From Myxococcales bacterium (GTDB taxonomy: Bacteria > Myxococcota > UBA727 > JABDBI01), in contig CANFCB010000001.1 of assembly GCA_947445025.1 (NCBI GenBank), forward strand, positions 2,816-66,815: a DNA stretch of 64,000 nucleotides. The letters are read 5' to 3'. Positions 15,876 to 25,662 of this stretch are shown here, piece by piece; positions within the stretch are counted from its first letter, which is position 1, and the number at the start of each line of letters is the position of its first letter. The position numbers were made by a program, and so were the translations under genes. The notes beneath the pieces are model-generated. The model saw only the letters and a program-made list of their open reading frames with translations, did no database searches and was not told the DNA's origin.

Positions 15876-17051
15876 TTAAAAAAACTGCAGTTTTTTCATG
15901 TCATCGTGACGTTCTTTATCGATAGCGTGTACATAACGACGCGTTGTTTCATCACTTTCGTGACGATGATTGGCCTTGATGTGTCCAAAACGAATACCGA
16001 CTCTGTCTTGCATAGAAGCCGATAAATGCCTGAGCCAATGAGGGGAGAAACACTTTAGTTTATTCGCTCTGCTGGGATTATCTGCAATGCTCATCGCGGC
16101 TTTCACAGCAAGCTGTTTAAGCAAATACCCCATTTGTCTGGCGCCTAAAGCATGTTGATGATGCCAAGAGGGAATCAACGGAATTGTTTCATCGCAAGCA
16201 GGCAACGGCGGCAAGTTTAGATGCAGGCGAAAACGTATTACTTCATCGAGCAGCGCCGGATTAACGGGAATCTTTCCTGGCTTATCACCTTTGCCTACCA
16301 CGAAAAACCACCAGTCCCCGTGAATTTGCTTAAAGGCATTCCAGCCATGGGTTTCCAATTCATGAATACGAAGTCCCAGCAAAAATAAAATTGCTACTAA
16401 AAAACGCAAGCGTGCTTTTTCATCTCGTTCACGCGCATTGGTTTCGGTTAAGTCTTGCAAGGTATTTAATAAAAGCTGCCAATCTTCATCTTCTAAAATT
16501 CGCTCATGAAGTTTAATAGCTTGTGCTTGTTGACGTTGATGCCGGCTTGCTTTGCGGCGCATTAAGCTTAACGGATTAAACTCTAAATAAGATGCTGCTA
16601 GCAAATATTGAAACAAGGAATCCAAAATCGTAAGCGCCGTCATTTGCGCTGTAGGGCTTAAAGGACCAACAAAAGGTCGCCACGAAGAGACATGTCGCTT
16701 GCTTGCTCTGCTTCCTTTGGGACCACACCAAACATGCGCGGGCAGGGGATCAGACAAAAAGTGAATATATTCTTCAAAATCCTGCCTGGTTAACGATGAC
16801 AAGGCTTTTTTCTTTTCAATTAGACACCATAACAGCAAACGCTCAGATTCTTTTTGGTAAGCGCGATAGGTCGAAGACTTTGCTATATATTCAGACAACC
16901 AACAGCAAATCGCTTCCCAATCATTGCTTGCCGCAATTTGACAAGTCCGCGTGTGGCAGCGATTGGCTCCAGTTTCGCCATTGAGATGCTTTAAAGAATC
17001 CTGCAATAAATTAAGAGGCGCTAATTTCTGTATTTCCTGTAGTGGTGGCAT
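15876..17051 (-). mobile_element. Tyrosine-type site-specific recombinase/integrase
   Basis: Box I GLRIHELE; box II HWLRHLSAS…RFGH…TTRRYVH with the catalytic Tyr; N-terminal SAM-like domain. Confidence 0.8.
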
Positions 17052-18075
17052 CCGCTTTTTCCTGATTTTTTTGGCGATAGATCAACTCACGTTGCAGTTT
17101 TTGCCAAAATCCTTTGTATTCAATACTACGCTTATTCGCGACAGCTAATTCGCCACGCACCGCGGCATGCTTAATTTCCAACGCCCGGCAAAGCTTTACG
17201 ACTTGCTCAGATTCCTGCTCTTGTTTGCATGCTTTTTTTTGTGCCATAATTAATTCTTGCCTATGCAGCTCAACTTTTTCTTGCTGTATGGCGTATTTTT
17301 TAAGCACCAGCTCATTTTTTTCATGAAGATGTCTTAAGGTCACACGAAATTGATTGCTTTCATCGCTAAATGCTTGCCACTGTTCTTTATAAGTTATTTG
17401 CAATTGCAAAACACTCTGCTCTTTTTCGTTAAGCGTTTTCTGTGCTTTGTCTTTCCAAAAATCGATTTCTTTTTCCTGCACGGTTTTAAGCTCAGCTTGC
17501 AGCAGACTAAAATCGGTTTTATATTGGTAAAATAATTTTTCGCTGGTTTGGTAACGTTGCATGGTCAGCGCGTGCGTATTTTTTTCTTCACTAAGCTGCA
17601 TGCGCAATTCGCCATGCTGCTGCCGCATGGCTGCGAATTGGCTGTCTAGAGTTTGATGGTGCGCCTGCAGTTTTTCATGGGCTTCTTTTAACACACTGTA
17701 TTCTTGGTGGGATTTTTGAAGCTTGTCCGCAAAATCCTGGTGCATTTTTTCTAAGTGATCCTGGCTTTCACTTTGAATTTGCTCATAAACCAAAGCAACG
17801 GCACGACTAATGGGGTCACTGGGAGAGTCCGCGGGTTCACCCCCCGTCTCCACATCAGAAATTCCTCTGCTCATTTTCCAGGAGCGGCGAAATTTATACA
17901 TTTCATTGGGACTGCCTTTTTTATAACCCAAAACTATTAGCTGATCGCGAATGGCATCCCCAGTGATCTTATTAGGCAAGGCATGAAGCGCCCATAAATC
18001 ATCGCAGGCCTTCCAAACTTCATTTTCTCTTCGAGTCCCTGGGTAATCCATCATCTCTCTCCGCTCTATCCTCAA
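17011..18075 (-). CDS. KfrA-like protein: N-terminal DNA-binding domain plus long coiled coil (plasmid/ICE-type)
   Basis: N-terminus (…NEVWKACDDLWALHALPNKITGDAIRDQLIVLGYKKGSPNEMYKFRRSW) resembles the KfrA_N DNA-binding domain, followed by ~280 aa of heptad-rich Q/E/K/L sequence. The 3' end overlaps the integrase start by 41 nt. Confidence 0.5.
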   Translation of the reverse strand: MRIERREMMDYPGTRRENEVWKACDDLWALHALPNKITGDAIRDQLIVLGYKKGSPNEMYKFRRSWKMSRGISDVETGGEPADSPSDPISRAVALVYEQIQSESQDHLEKMHQDFADKLQKSHQEYSVLKEAHEKLQAHHQTLDSQFAAMRQQHGELRMQLSEEKNTHALTMQRYQTSEKLFYQYKTDFSLLQAELKTVQEKEIDFWKDKAQKTLNEKEQSVLQLQITYKEQWQAFSDESNQFRVTLRHLHEKNELVLKKYAIQQEKVELHRQELIMAQKKACKQEQESEQVVKLCRALEIKHAAVRGELAVANKRSIEYKGFWQKLQRELIYRQKNQEKADATTTGNTEISAS

Positions 18076-18211: not shown

Positions 18212-19111
18212 TTATTTACAGGTTGCTTGTGAGCGCAATTTTTCCATTTGCATGCGCAATTCGAGGCCGCTTGTATCTAAAGATAGGAAGTATGCTCGAC
18301 CATTAAAGAATATGGTAGGCGTACCCTCAAGACCCAGCATCTGGGCTTCTTTAGTGCTGTTCTCGATTTTTTCAATTATCTTAGGGTTGCTCAAGTCAGA
18401 CTGAAATTTTGTGAGCTTTTTACCTTGAAGACCTATTTCTTTGGCGATGTTTAAAATGTGCTTTTCGCTTAAAGACTGTTTGCTGTTAAATAATGCTTCG
18501 TGCATTTCCCAGAATTTACCCTGTTCGCCTGCTGCTTCTGAGGCAATGGCTGCAGCAAAGGACATAGGGTGAACGGGTAGTGGGTAGTGTTTGTAGACGA
18601 GTCGCATTTCTCCTGGATATTTTTTAAGGAGCGCATTTAAGGCGGCCGCGGTGGTTTTGCAGTGCGCACATTCGAAGTCAGCGAATTCAACTAGAGTGAT
18701 AAGGGGTTTTGCTGCACCTTTGCCATGGTAATCCGCTAAATCAATTATTTGCGGTCTGGCACTGAATCCTAAACCAATCTCTTTTGTGAGCGGTTCGGCC
18801 ATGATCTCAAAAGGAACACCTTGGCGGATATTTTCGATTGCCCATTGGCTTAACACAACTGCAGGTTGGCATTGCTCTGGGGTTTGCAAGCATCCTGCCA
18901 GGGATTTTGGGCACTCGCATGGGCAAATTTCTTCGTTGGCAAATTTTAAAAAAGCTTCTTTTTGGGGCGTTGATAACCCTGCCATAGAAACAGCAGGAAG
19001 GCGGCTATATTTGATTTCTTTTTTGGCACTGGAGGCTGCGCTGCATCCTTCTTTAGACATGCAATTGGCCGTCATAATTAATATCAACAGCAAGGTGAGT
19101 GACGTTTTCAT
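18212..19111 (-). CDS. Secreted DsbA-family thiol:disulfide oxidoreductase with an extra Cys-rich N-terminal domain
   Basis: Signal peptide; thioredoxin-fold active site FECAHC; additional CPCECP…C…C cysteines upstream. Confidence 0.7.
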   Translation of the reverse strand: MKTSLTLLLILIMTANCMSKEGCSAASSAKKEIKYSRLPAVSMAGLSTPQKEAFLKFANEEICPCECPKSLAGCLQTPEQCQPAVVLSQWAIENIRQGVPFEIMAEPLTKEIGLGFSARPQIIDLADYHGKGAAKPLITLVEFADFECAHCKTTAAALNALLKKYPGEMRLVYKHYPLPVHPMSFAAAIASEAAGEQGKFWEMHEALFNSKQSLSEKHILNIAKEIGLQGKKLTKFQSDLSNPKIIEKIENSTKEAQMLGLEGTPTIFFNGRAYFLSLDTSGLELRMQMEKLRSQATCK

Positions 19112-19207: not shown

Positions 19208-20269
19208 TTGGATATGACTGTGAGATTTCCGTACATACTGGCGATTGATACAAGTTGCGACGATTCAGCTGTCGCGATTTTAAAAGAAGATGGCCATATT
19301 GCTGCGGATATTGTTTATTCGCAAAATGAAATACATGCGCCCTATGGCGGCGTTGTTCCCGAAATTTCTTCTCGCCAACATGTAAGTCGGATAGCAAGGG
19401 CAGTTCAGGAAGCATTTTTTCAAGCCGGCCTTCAGCCCCGTGACATCAAAGCTGTAGCCGTGACTTTTGGACCTGGACTGATTGGATCTTTATTGGTGGG
19501 CGTTCAATTTGCCAAAGGTTTTGCCCAAGGACTTTCGCTGCCCATTATAGGTATCCACCATATCGAGGGACATTTAATGGCGGCGTGCGGGGACGCAACA
19601 TTTCCTTCGCCACCGTTTATTAGTTTGATTGTTTCGGGAGGACACTCTGCTATTTATATGTGCGATAAAAACTATCAATTTAAAACGTTGGGCGAAACCA
19701 GAGATGATGCTGCAGGCGAAGCCTTTGATAAAATTGGACGCATGCTGGGTTTTAATTATCCTGCAGGAAAAACCATTGATGACTTAAGTGCACTTGGCGA
19801 TGATAATATCTATGTTTTTCCTGTCGCGATGCGCTCCAAGGCAACTTTAGATTATTCTTTTTCAGGGCTTAAAAATTCAGCCCGGCTCTTGATACAAACC
19901 CTCCTAAAAGAGCACGGCGAGATTAAAGGAAAAGTATTATTTGATTTTTGTGCAGGTCTCAGAAAAGCCATCGTTGCAGCGTTATTGAATAAAGCTTTTA
20001 TGGCTTGTCACGCGCAAGAAATAAAGCACTTGGTTTTAGGTGGTGGCGTTTCGGCTAATTCTCTTTTACGTACTGAAGCAGTCAGGCGAGGAGATTTAGA
20101 AAAAATTCAAGTCCATCTTCCACCTGTCAATCACTGTGTTGATAATGCCGTTATGATTGCCAGAGCAGCTTTGCGTCGTCTAAAAGAAGGGCAACAACAT
20201 ACTTTAGATTTTAATGTCATAGCAAATGTTTCTGTCGATACCGTTAGCGGTCAACCTCCAAACCGGTAA
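19208..20269 (+). CDS. tsaD: tRNA N6-adenosine threonylcarbamoyltransferase TsaD (Kae1/YgjD)
   Basis: ILAIDTSCDDSAVAI start and the metal-binding GIHHIEGH motif. Confidence 0.9.
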   Translation: MDMTVRFPYILAIDTSCDDSAVAILKEDGHIAADIVYSQNEIHAPYGGVVPEISSRQHVSRIARAVQEAFFQAGLQPRDIKAVAVTFGPGLIGSLLVGVQFAKGFAQGLSLPIIGIHHIEGHLMAACGDATFPSPPFISLIVSGGHSAIYMCDKNYQFKTLGETRDDAAGEAFDKIGRMLGFNYPAGKTIDDLSALGDDNIYVFPVAMRSKATLDYSFSGLKNSARLLIQTLLKEHGEIKGKVLFDFCAGLRKAIVAALLNKAFMACHAQEIKHLVLGGGVSANSLLRTEAVRRGDLEKIQVHLPPVNHCVDNAVMIARAALRRLKEGQQHTLDFNVIANVSVDTVSGQPPNR

Positions 20270-21485
20270 TCCCCAGGCTGAGGATGATAAGCACAACATT
20301 GTCAATGTCTGCATTTTGTAAAAAAGCAGAAATCGCCGCCGTATGGAAAAATGAAGGTGTGCGCAATCGGACGCGATAGGGTACATTTTTGCCATGAGAG
20401 ACGATGGTCACGCTTAGCTCTCCTTCTGGTGATTCAATCGATGCGGTTTGCATGCCAGGTATTATTGTCTGCTCATCGTTCCATATAGATTCATAAGGGA
20501 TGATCAGTGATTCTGCAGCTTTCATCTCTTTTAAAATTTCGTGGATGATTTTTTGGACGACCACAAAAGATGTTTCTACTTCATTAAGACGGACGTTAAA
20601 GCGCGACCAAGCATCTCCGTATTTTTGCGTACAAATAGCGGGCGCATAAGAAAAATAATTAAAATAAGGATGACTACGTCGTAAATCATCGGCAACGCCA
20701 CATGCGCGCAGAGTTGGCCCGGTGAGACCAAAAGACAGAGCGCTTTCTTTGCTGAGGACCCCGATACCGGTCAATCTTTTTTCAATTTGTGCTTCCTCCA
20801 AAACACTTCTTTTTAGAATATGGATCGCCTTTGACGTCGCATTCGCCTCTTTTTGAAACTGCTGTATCCATATTTTATAAATAGGCTTAGATATCCCGCC
20901 AACTTCCCACCTAGGAAGGTTGTCTTGGTCATGATTGACGAGAGTTTGTAAAATCTGCGCCATCTTTAGAGCATGAGCTGATGATTGTATAAGCGCATAA
21001 GGAGCAATTAAAGAAACTGTTTGGTGAATGACGTTGAGATGATGAAAAATACGGGCACATTCGAGCATGAGAACACGGTAGTCTTGTGCCAACTTTAGAA
21101 TTTTTCTTTCAATTTGCAGTGTTTTTTCTAAAGACAAAATGAATGTCAAGGCAATAGGAGCAGGAACCAAGGGGTTAATACGCGTGGCAAATGCAGGCCC
21201 TGTCTTCCAAGGAATAGTTTCAAAGGCTTTTTCCATTCCTTGATGTAGCCATCCAATTTCTGCTTTGACAGTCGTGATGTTTTTTTCTTGCAGCCAAATT
21301 GATAAGTGAAGCGGAAAGGGCAGAGAAATATGGGTGGGCCCAAATGATTGCATCAATTCTGTCGGTAGCTGACGCCTGAATCGATGTAGATATGCTGATT
21401 CTGTTTGCCTGTAGGAGCGAGTTTCCTCCTCGCTGGGCGAGAGAATTAATTCATGATGGCTTTTGTAAAAATAGTTTTGTTCCAT
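20244..21485 (-). CDS. nuoD: Divergent NADH:quinone oxidoreductase 49-kDa subunit (NuoD-like)
   Basis: FGPTH…IGWLHQGMEK and the C-terminal PEGELSVTIVSHGKNVPYRVRLRTPSF…LEVDR align to NuoD. The likely start is the internal Met just after the nuoC stop. Confidence 0.7.
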   Translation of the reverse strand: MEQNYFYKSHHELILSPSEEETRSYRQTESAYLHRFRRQLPTELMQSFGPTHISLPFPLHLSIWLQEKNITTVKAEIGWLHQGMEKAFETIPWKTGPAFATRINPLVPAPIALTFILSLEKTLQIERKILKLAQDYRVLMLECARIFHHLNVIHQTVSLIAPYALIQSSAHALKMAQILQTLVNHDQDNLPRWEVGGISKPIYKIWIQQFQKEANATSKAIHILKRSVLEEAQIEKRLTGIGVLSKESALSFGLTGPTLRACGVADDLRRSHPYFNYFSYAPAICTQKYGDAWSRFNVRLNEVETSFVVVQKIIHEILKEMKAAESLIIPYESIWNDEQTIIPGMQTASIESPEGELSVTIVSHGKNVPYRVRLRTPSFFHTAAISAFLQNADIDNVVLIILSLGITGLEVDR

Positions 21486-21487
21486 GT

Positions 21488-21976
21488 TTATGTTTTTTGG
21501 TAAATAGGGACTAAGGCTTGTTCTTTGGTGATGGGATATGAACGTCTCATGGGATGTCCGGCAAAGCCTGCGTACATAATCAAGCGGGAAAGATGGGGAT
21601 GCCCTTCTGCAAGGATACCAAACATATCCCACATTTCTCGCTCTAGCCAGATAGCGCTCGCGTATAAAGAAGAGAGGCTAGGTAGCGTTGGCTCAGATTC
21701 GTCTAATAAAATGCTAATCGATAAACGATATCCAAGTTTAGAGCTGCGCAATAAATAGAAAACTTCTAGTTGATTCTCACCATGATCCAGACAAGTGATA
21801 TCAAGCAGTAAATCTAAAGAGGCGTCAGGATCCTTATTTAAAAAATTAGCCACTTGTATGAGATGATTTTTTCGAATTAAAATTTTTTCATCTAGGCTAT
21901 TTTCCTGACTTTCCACGATAAAATCACCTTTGAGGCGTTTTTTAATTAACATCTGTAGATGCCTATTGGTACTCAT
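21488..21976 (-). CDS. nuoC: NADH:quinone oxidoreductase 30-kDa subunit (NuoC-like)
   Basis: WLEREMWDMFGILAEGHPHLSRL core motif of NuoC/Nqo5. Confidence 0.7.
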   Translation of the reverse strand: MSTNRHLQMLIKKRLKGDFIVESQENSLDEKILIRKNHLIQVANFLNKDPDASLDLLLDITCLDHGENQLEVFYLLRSSKLGYRLSISILLDESEPTLPSLSSLYASAIWLEREMWDMFGILAEGHPHLSRLIMYAGFAGHPMRRSYPITKEQALVPIYQKT

Positions 21977-22407
21977 GGTTTTCCTTGAGTGGATTTGTTA
22001 AGATTTTTCAGTGCATTTTTAATTTCTACAAAAGTCATGGGGCAACTGTCGATGGTTGTGTCTATAGGAATGACGTTTTGTAAATGTCGCAGAGTGGCGT
22101 AATCGACGACATGTGTTGTACAGCCTTTCAAGTGGAGAACAGAATTAGGATAAAGCATATTGGCGTAAAAATGTTGCAAGACAGGTGCTTGCTTGTGTGA
22201 GATGCGTCCCACGATGATGAGCAAATCCGTTTGCGCGGCTTTATGTGCCAACAAAATATGGGCAAATTGATAAAATGCCTCGGGATTTAGCCAGGCTGAC
22301 ATTTTTTCGCAGCAGGGCGCACCTAAAAAGGGGAAAAAATAGCGACGATAATCGGAAACAAAGTCAGGTAGTTTCATTTTAAAATTCCTTGGCGCCAAGC
22401 CCACCAT
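21973..22407 (-). CDS. nuoB: NADH:quinone oxidoreductase 20-kDa subunit (NuoB-like), short and divergent
   Basis: PCCEKM (cf. ACCAVEMM), DLLIIVG…KQAPV, KGC, DSCPM correspond to the NuoB N2-cluster ligand positions. Confidence 0.6.
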   Translation of the reverse strand: MVGLAPRNFKMKLPDFVSDYRRYFFPFLGAPCCEKMSAWLNPEAFYQFAHILLAHKAAQTDLLIIVGRISHKQAPVLQHFYANMLYPNSVLHLKGCTTHVVDYATLRHLQNVIPIDTTIDSCPMTFVEIKNALKNLNKSTQGKP

Positions 22408-22691
22408 AATCCTAAAAATAGCGCGCCAATACCTACGAGATAAACGGCATCGCTAAATAAAATGATATTTCCCAGCATGATCCATAAAAAATGAAGCAGG
22501 ATAATATTTTCAATATGCCGTGTGGAGTGCTTAGGGTGGCCTCCTTGAAAAAAAAGATTATCGAGAGCGTGCGATAGGCGAATTGCGGGATTCTCTTTTG
22601 GAGAAAATATCCATTGCAGTATTTCTCCAAAAAGCATGAACAAAGTAACAACGATAGCGATAGATAAGAAACCCACAATGTTTGATATCAC
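22374..22691 (-). CDS. nuoA: NuoA-like small membrane subunit
   Basis: 3-TM 105-aa protein with a C-terminal LGLWWAWRQGILK (cf. NuoA …YEWKKGAL), directly upstream of nuoB-like with overlap. Confidence 0.5.
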   Translation of the reverse strand: MISNIVGFLSIAIVVTLFMLFGEILQWIFSPKENPAIRLSHALDNLFFQGGHPKHSTRHIENIILLHFLWIMLGNIILFSDAVYLVGIGALFLGLWWAWRQGILK

Positions 22692-22736: not shown

Positions 22737-23699
22737 GTGTTATCTATGGTAACAATTATTGATATAGAAAAAGCACATGAGCGAATTTATGATTTTATTT
22801 TTGAAACGCCCTGTATTTTTTCTGAGGATTTAAGCAAAAGCACCAATGCCTCAGTCTTTTTAAAGCTCGATAATATGCAGCGCACTGGATCGTTTAAAGA
22901 GCGAGGTGCTTTAAACCGGTTGCTACTTTTGGATGCCCAAGAAAAAAGCAAGGGCGTAGTGACCGCATCTGCGGGAAATCATGGCCAAGCGGTTGCCTAC
23001 CATGCCGCAAGATTGCAAATTCCTGCCCAGGTTTTTATGCCGCTGAATTCGCCTGCGATCAAAATATCGCGAACCGAAAATTACGGTGCCAAGGTGCATC
23101 TGGTTGGCGATAATTATGATGACGTCCATCAGGCAGCTTTGCTGTTTGCTCAAAAGACCGATGCTTTTTATTTGCATGCCTATGATGACGCCGCTGTGAT
23201 TGCAGGGCAGGGGACAGTGGCCTTAGAAATTAAAAAACAACTGCCCAATGTGGATACCATCATTGTGCCTGTGGGCGGGGGAGGATTGATATCTGGAATA
23301 GCTGTGGCGACGGCGTCTTTTAAGTCCGCACCGCAGGTAATAGGTGTTGAGGCATCAGTAATGCCATCGATGGCCGAGGCGATTGCCGCAAAGGGGCCGG
23401 TCAAATTGCCCATTGCTGATACCATTGCCGATGGTATTCGCGTGCGCTTGGTCGGTAAGTTGACCTATGCTATTTGTGCGCAAATGGTTACAAACTGGGT
23501 TTCGGTAGATGACGATCAAATTGCCCGGGCAATTTTGTTTTTACTGGAGCAGCAAAAAACCATTGCCGAGGGGGCAGGAGCCGCTGGTGTGGCGTCGTTG
23601 CTTGCGGGGAAAATATCTTACAAAAAAAACAAGTGTATTTGCATTTTGGTAAGTGGTGGGAATATTGATGTCCACACGCTTGCTCGTGTAATTACTTGA
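22737..23699 (+). CDS. PLP-dependent threonine/serine dehydratase (fold type II; TdcB/IlvA catalytic-domain-only or serine racemase-like)
   Basis: PLP lysine motif SFKERGA, glycine-rich loop GGGGLISG; 320 aa with no ACT regulatory domains. Confidence 0.75.
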   Translation: MLSMVTIIDIEKAHERIYDFIFETPCIFSEDLSKSTNASVFLKLDNMQRTGSFKERGALNRLLLLDAQEKSKGVVTASAGNHGQAVAYHAARLQIPAQVFMPLNSPAIKISRTENYGAKVHLVGDNYDDVHQAALLFAQKTDAFYLHAYDDAAVIAGQGTVALEIKKQLPNVDTIIVPVGGGGLISGIAVATASFKSAPQVIGVEASVMPSMAEAIAAKGPVKLPIADTIADGIRVRLVGKLTYAICAQMVTNWVSVDDDQIARAILFLLEQQKTIAEGAGAAGVASLLAGKISYKKNKCICILVSGGNIDVHTLARVIT

Positions 23700-23769: not shown

Positions 23770-25662
23770 ATGACAGAACCACTACCCCTCACTGAGTTTG
23801 AATTTCGTCCCCAAATAACAGTCGCGCGTCGTTTAGCTTTTCGAACTGCTGTCCTCGGTTTCATATTATTATTGGCAACTTTTTCCATACTAATTCCTTG
23901 GCAAATTCGGACCGTGAAAGCGGGGGCTGTGCGCCAAGCGCAATCCTTGGCCAAGGTGATCGCTTCTCTTTATCAAGCAGTCGAACGTAACGAAGACGTG
24001 GACGAAGTGAGTCGGCTTATTTTGAAAGTCGCCCATATGCCGAGCGTCGCCTTTGTTAGTTTAATCGATGAAAATGGGAAAGTCATACACAGCACCGACT
24101 TTCATCAAATCAATCATGTGTACCCTAAGGCGTCTCGTAAGAGTGAAGTAGATAATTTTCTTTATGTGACTCAAGCGATACCAGATCCCAAACTCGACGT
24201 GTCTGCGGTGTTGGTGGTTATGGATCTGTCAAGCATCTACGCTGATTATATACGTTTTTATGTTGAGCTTGCTTGCGGATTTATTCTAGCGATTATTTTA
24301 TTGGCGTTGATTATGGCATGGATAACCAGGAGCATTGTTGGTTCTCGTTTAGCACGACTAGCGAGAGCGATGGGTAATGCGGAAAAGGGTTCCTTTTTAG
24401 TGCGCGCCCAAGTTGATAAAATGGACGAAGTGGGTGCGGTCACGGTCGCTTTCAATAAGCTCCTGGCCGCCATTACCAATTTGCAAGTAAAAGAGATTGA
24501 GCGAGAACAAGATTTAAAAAGTGCTCAAAAACAGTTGTCGATCAAGGCCCAATTAGAAAAAGTCGCAGACGAATTACAGGCTTCTAATAAAAGTTTAAAA
24601 CGAAGGGTGAAAGCACAGGAATTACTGATGGATGCGGCGCATCATTTGGGCGGTATTTTAAATAAAGAAGCTTTGGTAAGTCGTTTGGTGGTTTTGATAC
24701 GCGACAAACTGGGATGGCCTGATTTTGCAGTATTTTTAAAAGAGCCTGACCAAGATCAATTGCGTTTAGTGATCGCCTCAGGACTGCCTAATATTGACAT
24801 TATTAAAGAACTTTCTTTTCGCTTTGGCGAAGGTATTACTGGTTTAGTTGCTGAAAAAGCCACGCCTATCGCGATAGGTGATTTAGCCAAAGAACCGCGC
24901 ATAAAATTATGGTCTAAATTCGACAACCTCGACAATTTGCCGGATTTTTTAAAACACGGTTCGATGCTGTCGGTTCCTATGAGTTATCAAGGACGTGTAG
25001 TTGGCGTAATGGATTTTTTCTATCCTAAACTAAACGCTTTTGACGAGGAAGATGTTACTTTACTGCATGCCCTTGGTGCTTTGCTGGCGACTTCAATTGT
25101 TAATGCTGATTTGTACGAAGCGACCTTGGAATTAGCCACCTCAGATTCTTTGACTGGCGTGCTAAATCGTCGTGCCATGGAGCGTGTCATTGAAAATGAA
25201 GTTGCTCGTGCCCAACGGTTTTCTACGCCTTTGTCTTTGCTGCTCGTCGATGTGGATCATTTTAAAAACTATAATGATCAAATGGGTCATTTGATGGGAG
25301 ACGTAGCCTTAAAAGAAATTGCTTCTTGTTTACAAAAATCTGTGCGCAAGGTCGACAGTGTAGCGAGGTTTGGCGGCGAAGAGTTTTGTGTTATTTTGCC
25401 GCAAACCAGTGAGCAGGCGGCCATGGAGGTTGCTGAAAAACTTTGTGTGGCAGTGCGCAAACTCGATATACCGGGCGCGTCTATGCAGCCTCTAAAAAAA
25501 ATATCGGTGTCTATTGGGGTGGCTGTTTATCCGGATCATATGCCACCCATTTTAGAGCAGCCTCCGACTATCGAATTAATCCACGCCGCAGATGAAGCCT
25601 TATATGCCGCCAAAAGGAAAGGCCGAGACCGAGTGGTACGTTTTGAAGAAATCAATAGCTAA
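23770..25662 (+). CDS. Membrane sensor diguanylate cyclase (2 TM periplasmic sensor-HAMP-GAF-GGDEF)
   Basis: GGEEF active site (RFGGEEF), upstream GAF-like region, HAMP-like segment after the second TM. Confidence 0.85.
   Translation: MTEPLPLTEFEFRPQITVARRLAFRTAVLGFILLLATFSILIPWQIRTVKAGAVRQAQSLAKVIASLYQAVERNEDVDEVSRLILKVAHMPSVAFVSLIDENGKVIHSTDFHQINHVYPKASRKSEVDNFLYVTQAIPDPKLDVSAVLVVMDLSSIYADYIRFYVELACGFILAIILLALIMAWITRSIVGSRLARLARAMGNAEKGSFLVRAQVDKMDEVGAVTVAFNKLLAAITNLQVKEIEREQDLKSAQKQLSIKAQLEKVADELQASNKSLKRRVKAQELLMDAAHHLGGILNKEALVSRLVVLIRDKLGWPDFAVFLKEPDQDQLRLVIASGLPNIDIIKELSFRFGEGITGLVAEKATPIAIGDLAKEPRIKLWSKFDNLDNLPDFLKHGSMLSVPMSYQGRVVGVMDFFYPKLNAFDEEDVTLLHALGALLATSIVNADLYEATLELATSDSLTGVLNRRAMERVIENEVARAQRFSTPLSLLLVDVDHFKNYNDQMGHLMGDVALKEIASCLQKSVRKVDSVARFGGEEFCVILPQTSEQAAMEVAEKLCVAVRKLDIPGASMQPLKKISVSIGVAVYPDHMPPILEQPPTIELIHAADEALYAAKRKGRDRVVRFEEINS

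Follow-up and report, generated by a model that had tools for sequence, protein, structure and literature searches.

In a 64,000-nt stretch of DNA from an uncultured member of the Myxococcota (assembly GCA_947445025.1, contig CANFCB010000001.1, positions 2,816 to 66,815; the whole stretch is called the window below), we found four adjacent genes related to nuoA, nuoB, nuoC and nuoD of respiratory complex I. On balance, we judged them to be a stand-alone derivative of the first four nuo genes, kept as a translationally coupled operon in uncultured Myxococcota, as opposed to the functional Q-module of a complex I whose genes are simply split. The best-supported reading was that of a membrane-tethered Q-module derivative which would have lost quinone reduction and may have acquired a new function, whether structural, regulatory or other. 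That the genes belong to an ordinary split complex I appeared unlikely because both quinone ligands of the NuoD-like protein were replaced, a sister clade had lost the cysteines of the N2 cluster, and the proteins scored under the curated cut-offs.

The nuoA-D-like operon and its family

The four genes are denoted A', B', C' and D' according to their nuo counterparts, W stands for the window, and L with a number stands for a related locus. About 216 kb of DNA was read in total, comprising the window region and 17 related loci with family members. The operon was organized as follows:

22374-22691, minus strand: A', nuoA-like gene, 105 aa, GTG start
21973-22407, minus strand: B', nuoB-like gene, 144-aa open reading frame (ORF); translation probably starts at ATG 22377 and yields 134 aa
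21488-21976, minus strand: C', nuoC-like gene, 162 aa, the least divergent subunit
20244-21485, minus strand: D', nuoD-like gene, 413 aa, with NuoD fold, proline at both quinone ligands and an acidic N-terminal extension

The ATG of B' at 22377 lay on the stop codon of A', and the ATG of C' on the stop codon of B', giving ATGA overlaps at both junctions, while C' and D' were separated by 2 nt. Such an arrangement is characteristic of subunits that are translationally coupled and belong to the same complex. D' started at ATG 21485, and independent gene calls on identical metagenomic contigs returned products of 105, 134, 162 and 413 aa. A longer D ORF beginning at GTG 21632 and overlapping C' was discarded, since the independent calls favored ATG 21485. 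At their 3' ends, D' and the convergent tsaD gene shared a 26-nt overlap. Rfam and tRNA scans of the window produced no match, and a scan for promoters and terminators gave a signal no better than in shuffled sequence.

A preliminary description of the window had already reported four consecutive minus-strand homologues of NuoA, NuoB, NuoC and NuoD at 20244-22691 and had called the subunits short and divergent. Hidden Markov models (for B, C and D), the predicted fold (for D) and profile comparisons (for A, the weakest case) led to the same assignments, and the divergence was apparent from scores under the curated cut-offs as well as from the lengths of the NuoB ORF (144 aa, with a probable product of 134 aa) and NuoC (162 aa). 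C' and D' matched the Pfam families Complex1_30kDa (6.5e-34) and Complex1_49kDa (4.2e-45), and B' reached 21.3 bits against Oxidored_q6, under the gathering score of 27. Among the NCBIfam models, B' matched NuoB at about 7e-14 (nuoB_fam 8.4e-14) with 51.7 bits against a cut-off of 142.7, and C' matched TIGR01961 at 3.2e-31 with 108.4 bits, just under the cut-off of 122.45. D' matched NF004739 at 2e-62 with 211 bits against a cut-off of 360, and TIGR01962 with 178.5 bits against 459.35. Compared across enzyme types, D' scored 211 bits with NuoD, 152 bits with FpoD and 114 bits with NdhH, all under the respective cut-offs. Thus, D' did not group with the F420H2 dehydrogenase (Fpo) or NDH-1, as its best match was neither FpoD nor NdhH and the equivalent of Tyr87 was missing.

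Searches against the PDB pointed in the same direction. The top match of D' was NuoD of M. smegmatis (1.2e-35), followed at a distance by HycE (2e-18) and MbhL (5e-11). All 40 matches of B' were NuoB/PSST/NdhK chains of complex I, the best at 2.7e-10, and the alignment positions showed that the C-terminus of B' was about 30 aa shorter than that of the mycobacterial chain. An AlphaFold2 model of D', built on an alignment of 22 family sequences, had a mean predicted local distance difference test score (pLDDT) of 87.4, and its top matches in Foldseek were 49-kDa/NuoD chains with a TM-score of about 0.8. We also observed that residues 1-45 of D' (window 21350-21485, minus strand) were predicted to be disordered (pLDDT <55) yet contained a conserved acidic motif, which read ELILSPSEEE in the window and PPDDDDLIRPxxEEEL in a related clade of high GC (guanine plus cytosine) content. 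This N-terminal extension could be a partner-binding segment.

The identity of A' was visible by profile methods only, so its assignment as a NuoA was the weakest of the four and should be taken as probable. Single sequences gave no Pfam or NCBIfam match, and hhalign did not succeed against E. coli NuoA alone, a profile-to-profile comparison being needed. A profile of eight family members aligned end to end with NdhC/NuoA/Nqo7/ND3 chains of the PDB (best E=4e-4), which made up eight of the 11 matches. Moreover, hhalign against a small alignment of canonical NuoA gave a probability of 91.7% (E=7.7e-7) over 108 columns. The C-terminal WWxWRxGxL of A' resembled the YxWKKGALE of canonical NuoA, and the acids of the canonical FDxE motif in transmembrane helix 2 (TM2) were not conserved in the hhalign alignment.

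The family was small and known from metagenomes only. A word-indexed search with D' returned only nine relatives among 5.8 billion proteins, and when 1.84 billion representatives were searched exhaustively with a profile, about 28 full-length members came out on top, with at least 232 bits, followed by a few shortened forms. This corresponded to roughly 30 clusters at 50% identity, and all ten clusters that were looked up were metagenomic singletons. Among the GTDB species genomes, the family occurred in five metagenome-assembled genomes (MAGs) titled Myxococcales, Myxococcota, Deltaproteobacteria or simply 'bacterium'. MAGs titled 'Myxococcaceae' and 'Myxococcota bacterium' encoded proteins with 81-83% identity to the LepA of the window; in the lepA regions of relatives with contigs of 0.9 Mb and 7 Mb, synteny with the window was lost and the module was not nearby. 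Word-indexed searches with D' and C' recovered almost only family members and did not thereby reveal the closest canonical lineage.

A', B', C' and D' occurred together and in the same order in every locus with enough sequence. In a neighbor-joining tree without bootstrap, the family formed one clade on a long branch with two subclades, namely the low-GC clade that includes the window and the high-GC clade. In both clades, the ORFs had stayed intact even where identity had dropped to about 28%, and 19 positions of D' were invariant with 29 more conserved in at least 90% of the members. The ratio of nonsynonymous to synonymous substitution rates (dN/dS), estimated from the window and two relatives with D' identities of 78% and 73%, was 0.15-0.22 for A', 0.10-0.15 for B', 0.09-0.10 for C' and 0.11-0.12 for D', which argued that all four genes were functional and under purifying selection. 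Several D' proteins were shortened to 336-362 aa (P0025, P0033, P0039, P0050 and P0053 among them), with both conserved ends kept and the middle part gone. The D' of L012 (L012:2166-2969) was built in the same way and had 267 aa.

Our literature searches found no description of a nuoABCD-only family. A 2025 survey of Nuo distribution listed 2,171 species with 'incomplete C-I', i.e., with subsets of the Nuo subunits, and the text of it that was searched mentioned neither nuoABCD nor Myxococcota (PMC12361115).

Catalytic residues and the search for further complex I genes

In NuoD, the quinone head group is bound by His38 and Tyr87 (T. thermophilus numbering, defined in PMC4758237). HMMER alignments to solved NuoD chains placed P56 of the window D' on the ligand histidine and P105 on the ligand tyrosine, so that neither quinone ligand was present. 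The same replacement prevailed in the family: of the 27 top-ranked members, 22 had proline at the position of His38 and 25 at that of Tyr87. The window D' also had Asn at the D86 position.

The iron-sulfur (Fe-S) ligands followed a different distribution. In the window B', residues C32, C33, C96 and C122 aligned to all four ligands of cluster N2, and its PCCEKM segment, named in the preliminary description as standing in place of the canonical motif, aligned to the canonical ACC..EM with a deletion of two residues after the tandem cysteines. That description had also singled out the N2 ligands and the quinone site as worth examining, and the alignments gave a divided picture, with the N2 cysteines kept in the window clade and both quinone ligands replaced by proline. 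The cysteines were retained in the low-GC clade (W, L003, L006, L008 and L015, and partly in L012 and L022), and all four were missing in the high-GC sister clade (L007, L009, L010, L011, L014, L016 and L017), which leaves half of the family devoid of Fe-S ligands in B'. The simplest reading of the neighbor-joining tree was that the N2 ligands were lost once. Since the rest of the module was equally conserved in both clades, the function they share cannot depend on N2, and the module of the window clade may still hold one [4Fe-4S] cluster.

Similar replacements were seen outside the family. Many of the NuoD-like metagenomic proteins ranked just under it (P0029-P0060) were also devoid of the His38 and/or Tyr87 equivalents, and one of them, a NuoCD fusion of Halobacteriovorax marinus, had Lys and Phe at these positions. 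Altered acceptor sites may thus be commoner than usually assumed. It has been reported that NuoD proteins from Sulfolobus, Nautiliales and Desulfurobacteriales do not have His38 and Tyr87; they were treated as subunits of Nuo complexes with their function left open, and canonical NuoD of Myxococcales was described as carrying H38S and D86N (PMC4758237, Degli Esposti 2015).

No other part of complex I was found near the module. Probing the window with E. coli NuoA-N gave matches to B and CD only, in agreement with the earlier statement that none of nuoE-N is in the window. Contig CANLIP010000002.1 (101.6 kb; MAG GCA_947491275.1), which carries the window, had no further nuo gene at positions 3576-84075. 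Across the family loci, no other nuo homologue was detected, and the NuoH, L, M and N probes were without match; the sole NuoH match came from the outgroup locus L021, directly after a D gene whose product was 24% identical to D'. A Pfam scan of the larger window ORFs identified ordinary chromosomal genes, e.g., rho, spoT, sucCD, lepA and lpxD-fabZ, as well as several aminoacyl-tRNA synthetases and an oligopeptide ABC transporter. The flanks of the window on the contig contained lon, mreBCD, pbp2-rodA, topA and ResB/CcsA genes for cytochrome c biogenesis. The ResB and CcsA genes (system II cytochrome c biogenesis) were located at L026:6628-9389, about 3-5 kb before the window start, and suggested that the organism probably had a respiratory chain with c-type cytochromes.

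Descent from a true nuo operon, and not from a group 4 hydrogenase, was indicated by the order of the genes, by the NuoA-like gene at their head and by the ranking of the scores. Because proline replaced both quinone ligands, N2 was lost in the sister clade and no gene for NuoI, E, F or G lay nearby, the shared function did not appear to be electron transfer to quinone. In complex I, a loop of NuoA clasps NuoB and NuoD. By analogy, the NuoA/ND3-like A' would anchor a B'C'D' subcomplex, i.e., a Q-module without NuoI, at the inner membrane, and this complex would be independent of the membrane arm of complex I. The function common to the family would then be neither NADH:quinone nor ferredoxin:quinone electron transfer, and the module would most likely be a non-catalytic or newly specialized membrane-associated complex with a structural or regulatory role. 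In the window clade, it may carry a single Fe-S cluster, which could serve as a redox or iron sensor.

Neighboring genes

The genes flanking the operon in the window were the following:

18212-19111, minus strand: DsbA-like thioredoxin-fold gene whose product has a signal peptide and, in its N-terminal part, a segment rich in Cys, CPCECPKSLAGCLQTPEQC
19208-20269, plus strand: tsaD, convergent with D', a housekeeping gene (TIGR03723, 362 bits against a cut-off of 296)
22737-23699, plus strand: threonine ammonia-lyase-like PALP enzyme, divergent from A' at 45 nt (Pfam PALP 1.7e-78)
23770-25662, plus strand: membrane HAMP-GAF-GGDEF diguanylate cyclase (Pfam GGDEF 5e-45, GAF, HAMP)

The neighbors had previously been given as tsaD and a dehydratase, which was consistent with the TIGR03723 match and with the threonine ammonia-lyase-like PALP protein. 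The tsaD gene adjoined the module only in the window clade (W, L003, L005, L006 and L008) and was 8 kb away in L014. Upstream of the module, a block on the opposite strand consisted of the PALP and/or the DsbA-like gene followed by the GAF-GGDEF cyclase. The PALP gene was upstream and divergent in W, L003, L006, L007, L008, L009, L010, L011, L017 and L023. The window PALP protein matched NF005600 at 5e-110 over model positions 8-322 of 408 only, and it had 320 aa compared with 399-402 aa in L003, L006 and L007, so the C-terminal part of this protein appears to be lost in the window organism. The DsbA-like protein, which had a weak match to the Rcas_1661 family of thioredoxin-like (seleno)lipoproteins, accompanied the module in both clades. 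Upstream DNA of sufficient length was available for 11 loci, and in ten of these the GAF-GGDEF gene was located upstream on the opposite strand, in both clades (42-46% identity between them); it directly adjoined the module in L012 and L015.

Downstream of D', several high-GC loci (L007, L011 and L014) had a gene for an MscS-like channel (PF00924) on the same strand, followed in L011 and L014 by a gene for a membrane protein of 413 aa and one for a CPA-type Na+/H+ exchanger (PF00999); these regions lay at L007:6422-8221, L011:11191-15382 and L014:11332-15697. D' and the MscS-like gene were 39 nt apart in L014 and 98 nt apart in L007, and L014 had overlaps at the later gene boundaries. These genes were not beside the module in the window clade or in L017 and were displaced by 8 kb in L010; their absence from L017 and the window clade ruled out the MscS/CPA link as a family-wide feature. 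The GGDEF, DsbA-like and PALP proteins were 42-55% identical between the clades compared with about 30-35% for the module, and the better conservation of the neighbors suggested that the block may be an inherited gene order and not a functional unit. Links to cyclic di-GMP (c-di-GMP) signaling and ion transport should accordingly be regarded as leads only, and the PALP enzyme and the cyclase as conserved neighbors with at most a possible functional tie to the module. PADLOC gave no defense-system match for A'-D', PALP, GGDEF or the DsbA-like protein.

Two further features of the window deserve mention. Beside the DsbA-like gene, at 15876-18075 on the minus strand, an ORF for a tyrosine recombinase/integrase (391 aa) overlapped an ORF for a KfrA_N-like coiled-coil protein (354 aa). 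This pair may be a small mobile insertion, and the block of L003 also contained an integrase, though at another position. At 56242-58093 on the minus strand, between skp/ompH and lpxD-fabZ, there were three tandem paralogous ORFs (175, 239 and 202 aa) that combined signal-peptide or lipobox-like N-termini with a eukaryote-type RING finger (Pfam zf-C3HC4_3, best 7e-15). Secreted RING proteins are unusual in bacteria, and the window proteins could be effector-like.

Alternative readings and comparison with known systems

The preliminary description had offered three options for the orphan set: a split nuo operon, a second degenerate copy, or part of another enzyme resembling complex I. Its account of an orphan, divergent A-B-C-D set was upheld and could be extended to a conserved family, and an ordinary split complex I was disfavored by the prolines at the ligand positions, the loss of N2 in the sister clade and the low scores. 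In the split-operon case, these would be the sole nuoA-D genes of the genome and would encode the Q-module of a full enzyme of the complex I type, the remaining genes of which lie elsewhere, with an acceptor site remodeled, for example, for another acceptor or for resistance to myxobacterial Q-site toxins. The canonical A-B-C-D order, the retained NuoA-like anchor and the N2 ligands of the window clade would suit such an enzyme, as would the cytochrome c biogenesis genes on the contig of a probably respiring organism. However, proline stood at the Tyr87 position in nearly all members, the sister clade without N2 ligands had kept the rest of the module equally conserved, all subunits fell far under the curated cut-offs, the family sat on a long branch, and its loci had no other nuo gene; we therefore considered this explanation unlikely. 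Several points nevertheless weighed against a stand-alone module. NuoH-N and NuoI could lie elsewhere in the carrier genomes and dock the module. The NuoA of complex I is packed against further membrane subunits, and the retention of A' therefore argues for some membrane partner. The existence of natural NuoD proteins lacking His38 and Tyr87 means that the loss of these residues alone is no proof of independence (PMC4758237). Since NuoD of Myxococcales already has H38S and D86N (PMC4758237), the Asn shared at the D86 position fits an origin of the module within the Myxococcota and keeps the split operon alive at a low level.

A kinship with group 4 [NiFe] hydrogenases had been raised on account of the shared B/C/D trio, and the core of an Ehr-type complex was considered as well, Ehr being likewise devoid of NiFe ligands (cited in PMC4758237). 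The earlier remark that CxxC pairs were not evident in NuoD was borne out, as the corresponding positions (L1 RxCGxC and L5 DPCxxC) read RINPLVP and GITGLEVDR without any Cys. The suggested hydrogenase affinity was not supported: the genes followed the nuo order with a NuoA-like gene first, the PDB ranking put NuoD (1e-35) far ahead of HycE (2e-18) and MbhL (5e-11), and no NuoH- or NuoL-like gene was adjacent to the module, unlike in the outgroup L021. A hydrogenase or Ehr-type core was consequently very improbable. Equally slight was the chance that the genes were nuo pseudogenes decaying after the loss of complex I. The lost catalytic residues and the shortened variants (the 267-aa D' of L012 and the 336-362-aa forms) might be expected of a remnant, but the ORFs were intact down to about 28% identity, dN/dS was 0.09-0.22, positions of D' were conserved and its model was confident; on the selection data, pseudogene decay was largely ruled out. 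It was also conceivable, albeit quite improbable, that the module had been recruited as a cap or regulator of MscS-like channels and CPA-type Na+/H+ exchangers, or of the GAF-GGDEF cyclase, in place of the complex I arm. The same-strand MscS-like genes at short distances after D' in L007, L011 and L014, the exchangers in L011 and L014, and the upstream GAF-GGDEF gene in ten of 11 loci of both clades spoke for it. On the other hand, the MscS/CPA genes were not beside the module in the window clade and L017 and lay 8 kb off in L010, and the GGDEF, DsbA-like and PALP genes were on the opposite strand, better conserved than the module and possibly part of an inherited gene order.

A more specific form of the stand-alone reading can be put forward only tentatively, and we regarded it as rather doubtful. 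In this scenario, a Q-module with an ND3-type anchor would have left the proton-pumping arm behind and found a second use as a pseudoenzyme, tethered to the membrane and without redox activity; it would act as a cap or regulator of MscS-like/CPA transporters in one clade and might, across the family, take part in a c-di-GMP-linked envelope circuit, with a leftover N2-type cluster as a sensor in the window clade.

Complex I is thought to stem from a soluble hydrogenase-like module that joined an antiporter module. If the stand-alone reading is true, a selected A-B-C-D module would represent the reverse step, in which the Q-module leaves the enzyme and survives in another role. The complex I family would thereby gain a naturally occurring derivative that is a pseudoenzyme. 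The module would also provide a small system for the tethering of the Q-module by NuoA, and caution annotators against inferring a functional complex I from nuoA-D matches in Myxococcota MAGs. The gene content of the carrier genomes distinguishes the cases. A coexisting canonical nuo set would make the module a degenerate paralogue, and genomes with nothing else would have a truly stand-alone module. Genomes with only nuoE-N or nuoH-N would encode an enzyme with an altered acceptor site; if they encode the rest of nuo and no other copy of B, C or D, the acceptor site of this complex-I-like enzyme would be radically changed, a finding that would also be of interest.

Among the known systems, group 4 hydrogenases and Ehr complexes share the NuoB/C/D-like core with the module, and Ehr likewise has neither NiFe ligands nor a known substrate; nevertheless, the sequence of D' resembled NuoD far more than it did HycE or MbhL. 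Furthermore, these systems include NuoH-like and antiporter-like membrane subunits and have no separate nuoA-first order. Genomes of the 'incomplete C-I' category resemble our case in having only subsets of Nuo subunits, but the category is generic, and no conserved ABCD-only family with dead sites was found in the searched text of that survey (PMC12361115). The Nuo complexes with altered NuoD (Sulfolobus, Nautiliales, Desulfurobacteriales and Myxococcales) are similar in that their quinone residues were naturally lost or replaced, with Asn at the D86 position in common with Myxococcales (PMC4758237). In contrast to our module, which stood alone in the loci read and had lost its Fe-S ligands in part of the family, these NuoD proteins were treated as Nuo subunits, and Tyr87 was not among the listed Myxococcales changes (PMC4758237). 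Respiratory complex I (Nuo/Nqo) differed from the module in several respects: no genes for NuoH, I, J-N or E-G were nearby, His38 and Tyr87 were changed to Pro, the acids of NuoA TM2 were not kept, B' was shortened with a two-residue deletion after CC, the sister clade was without N2 ligands, and the scores were under the cut-offs. Yet the same four proteins were encoded in the order of the nuo operon start, D' had the NuoD fold, C' kept the 30-kDa domain, the window B' had all four N2 cysteines including the tandem CC, and A' aligned end to end with NuoA/ND3.

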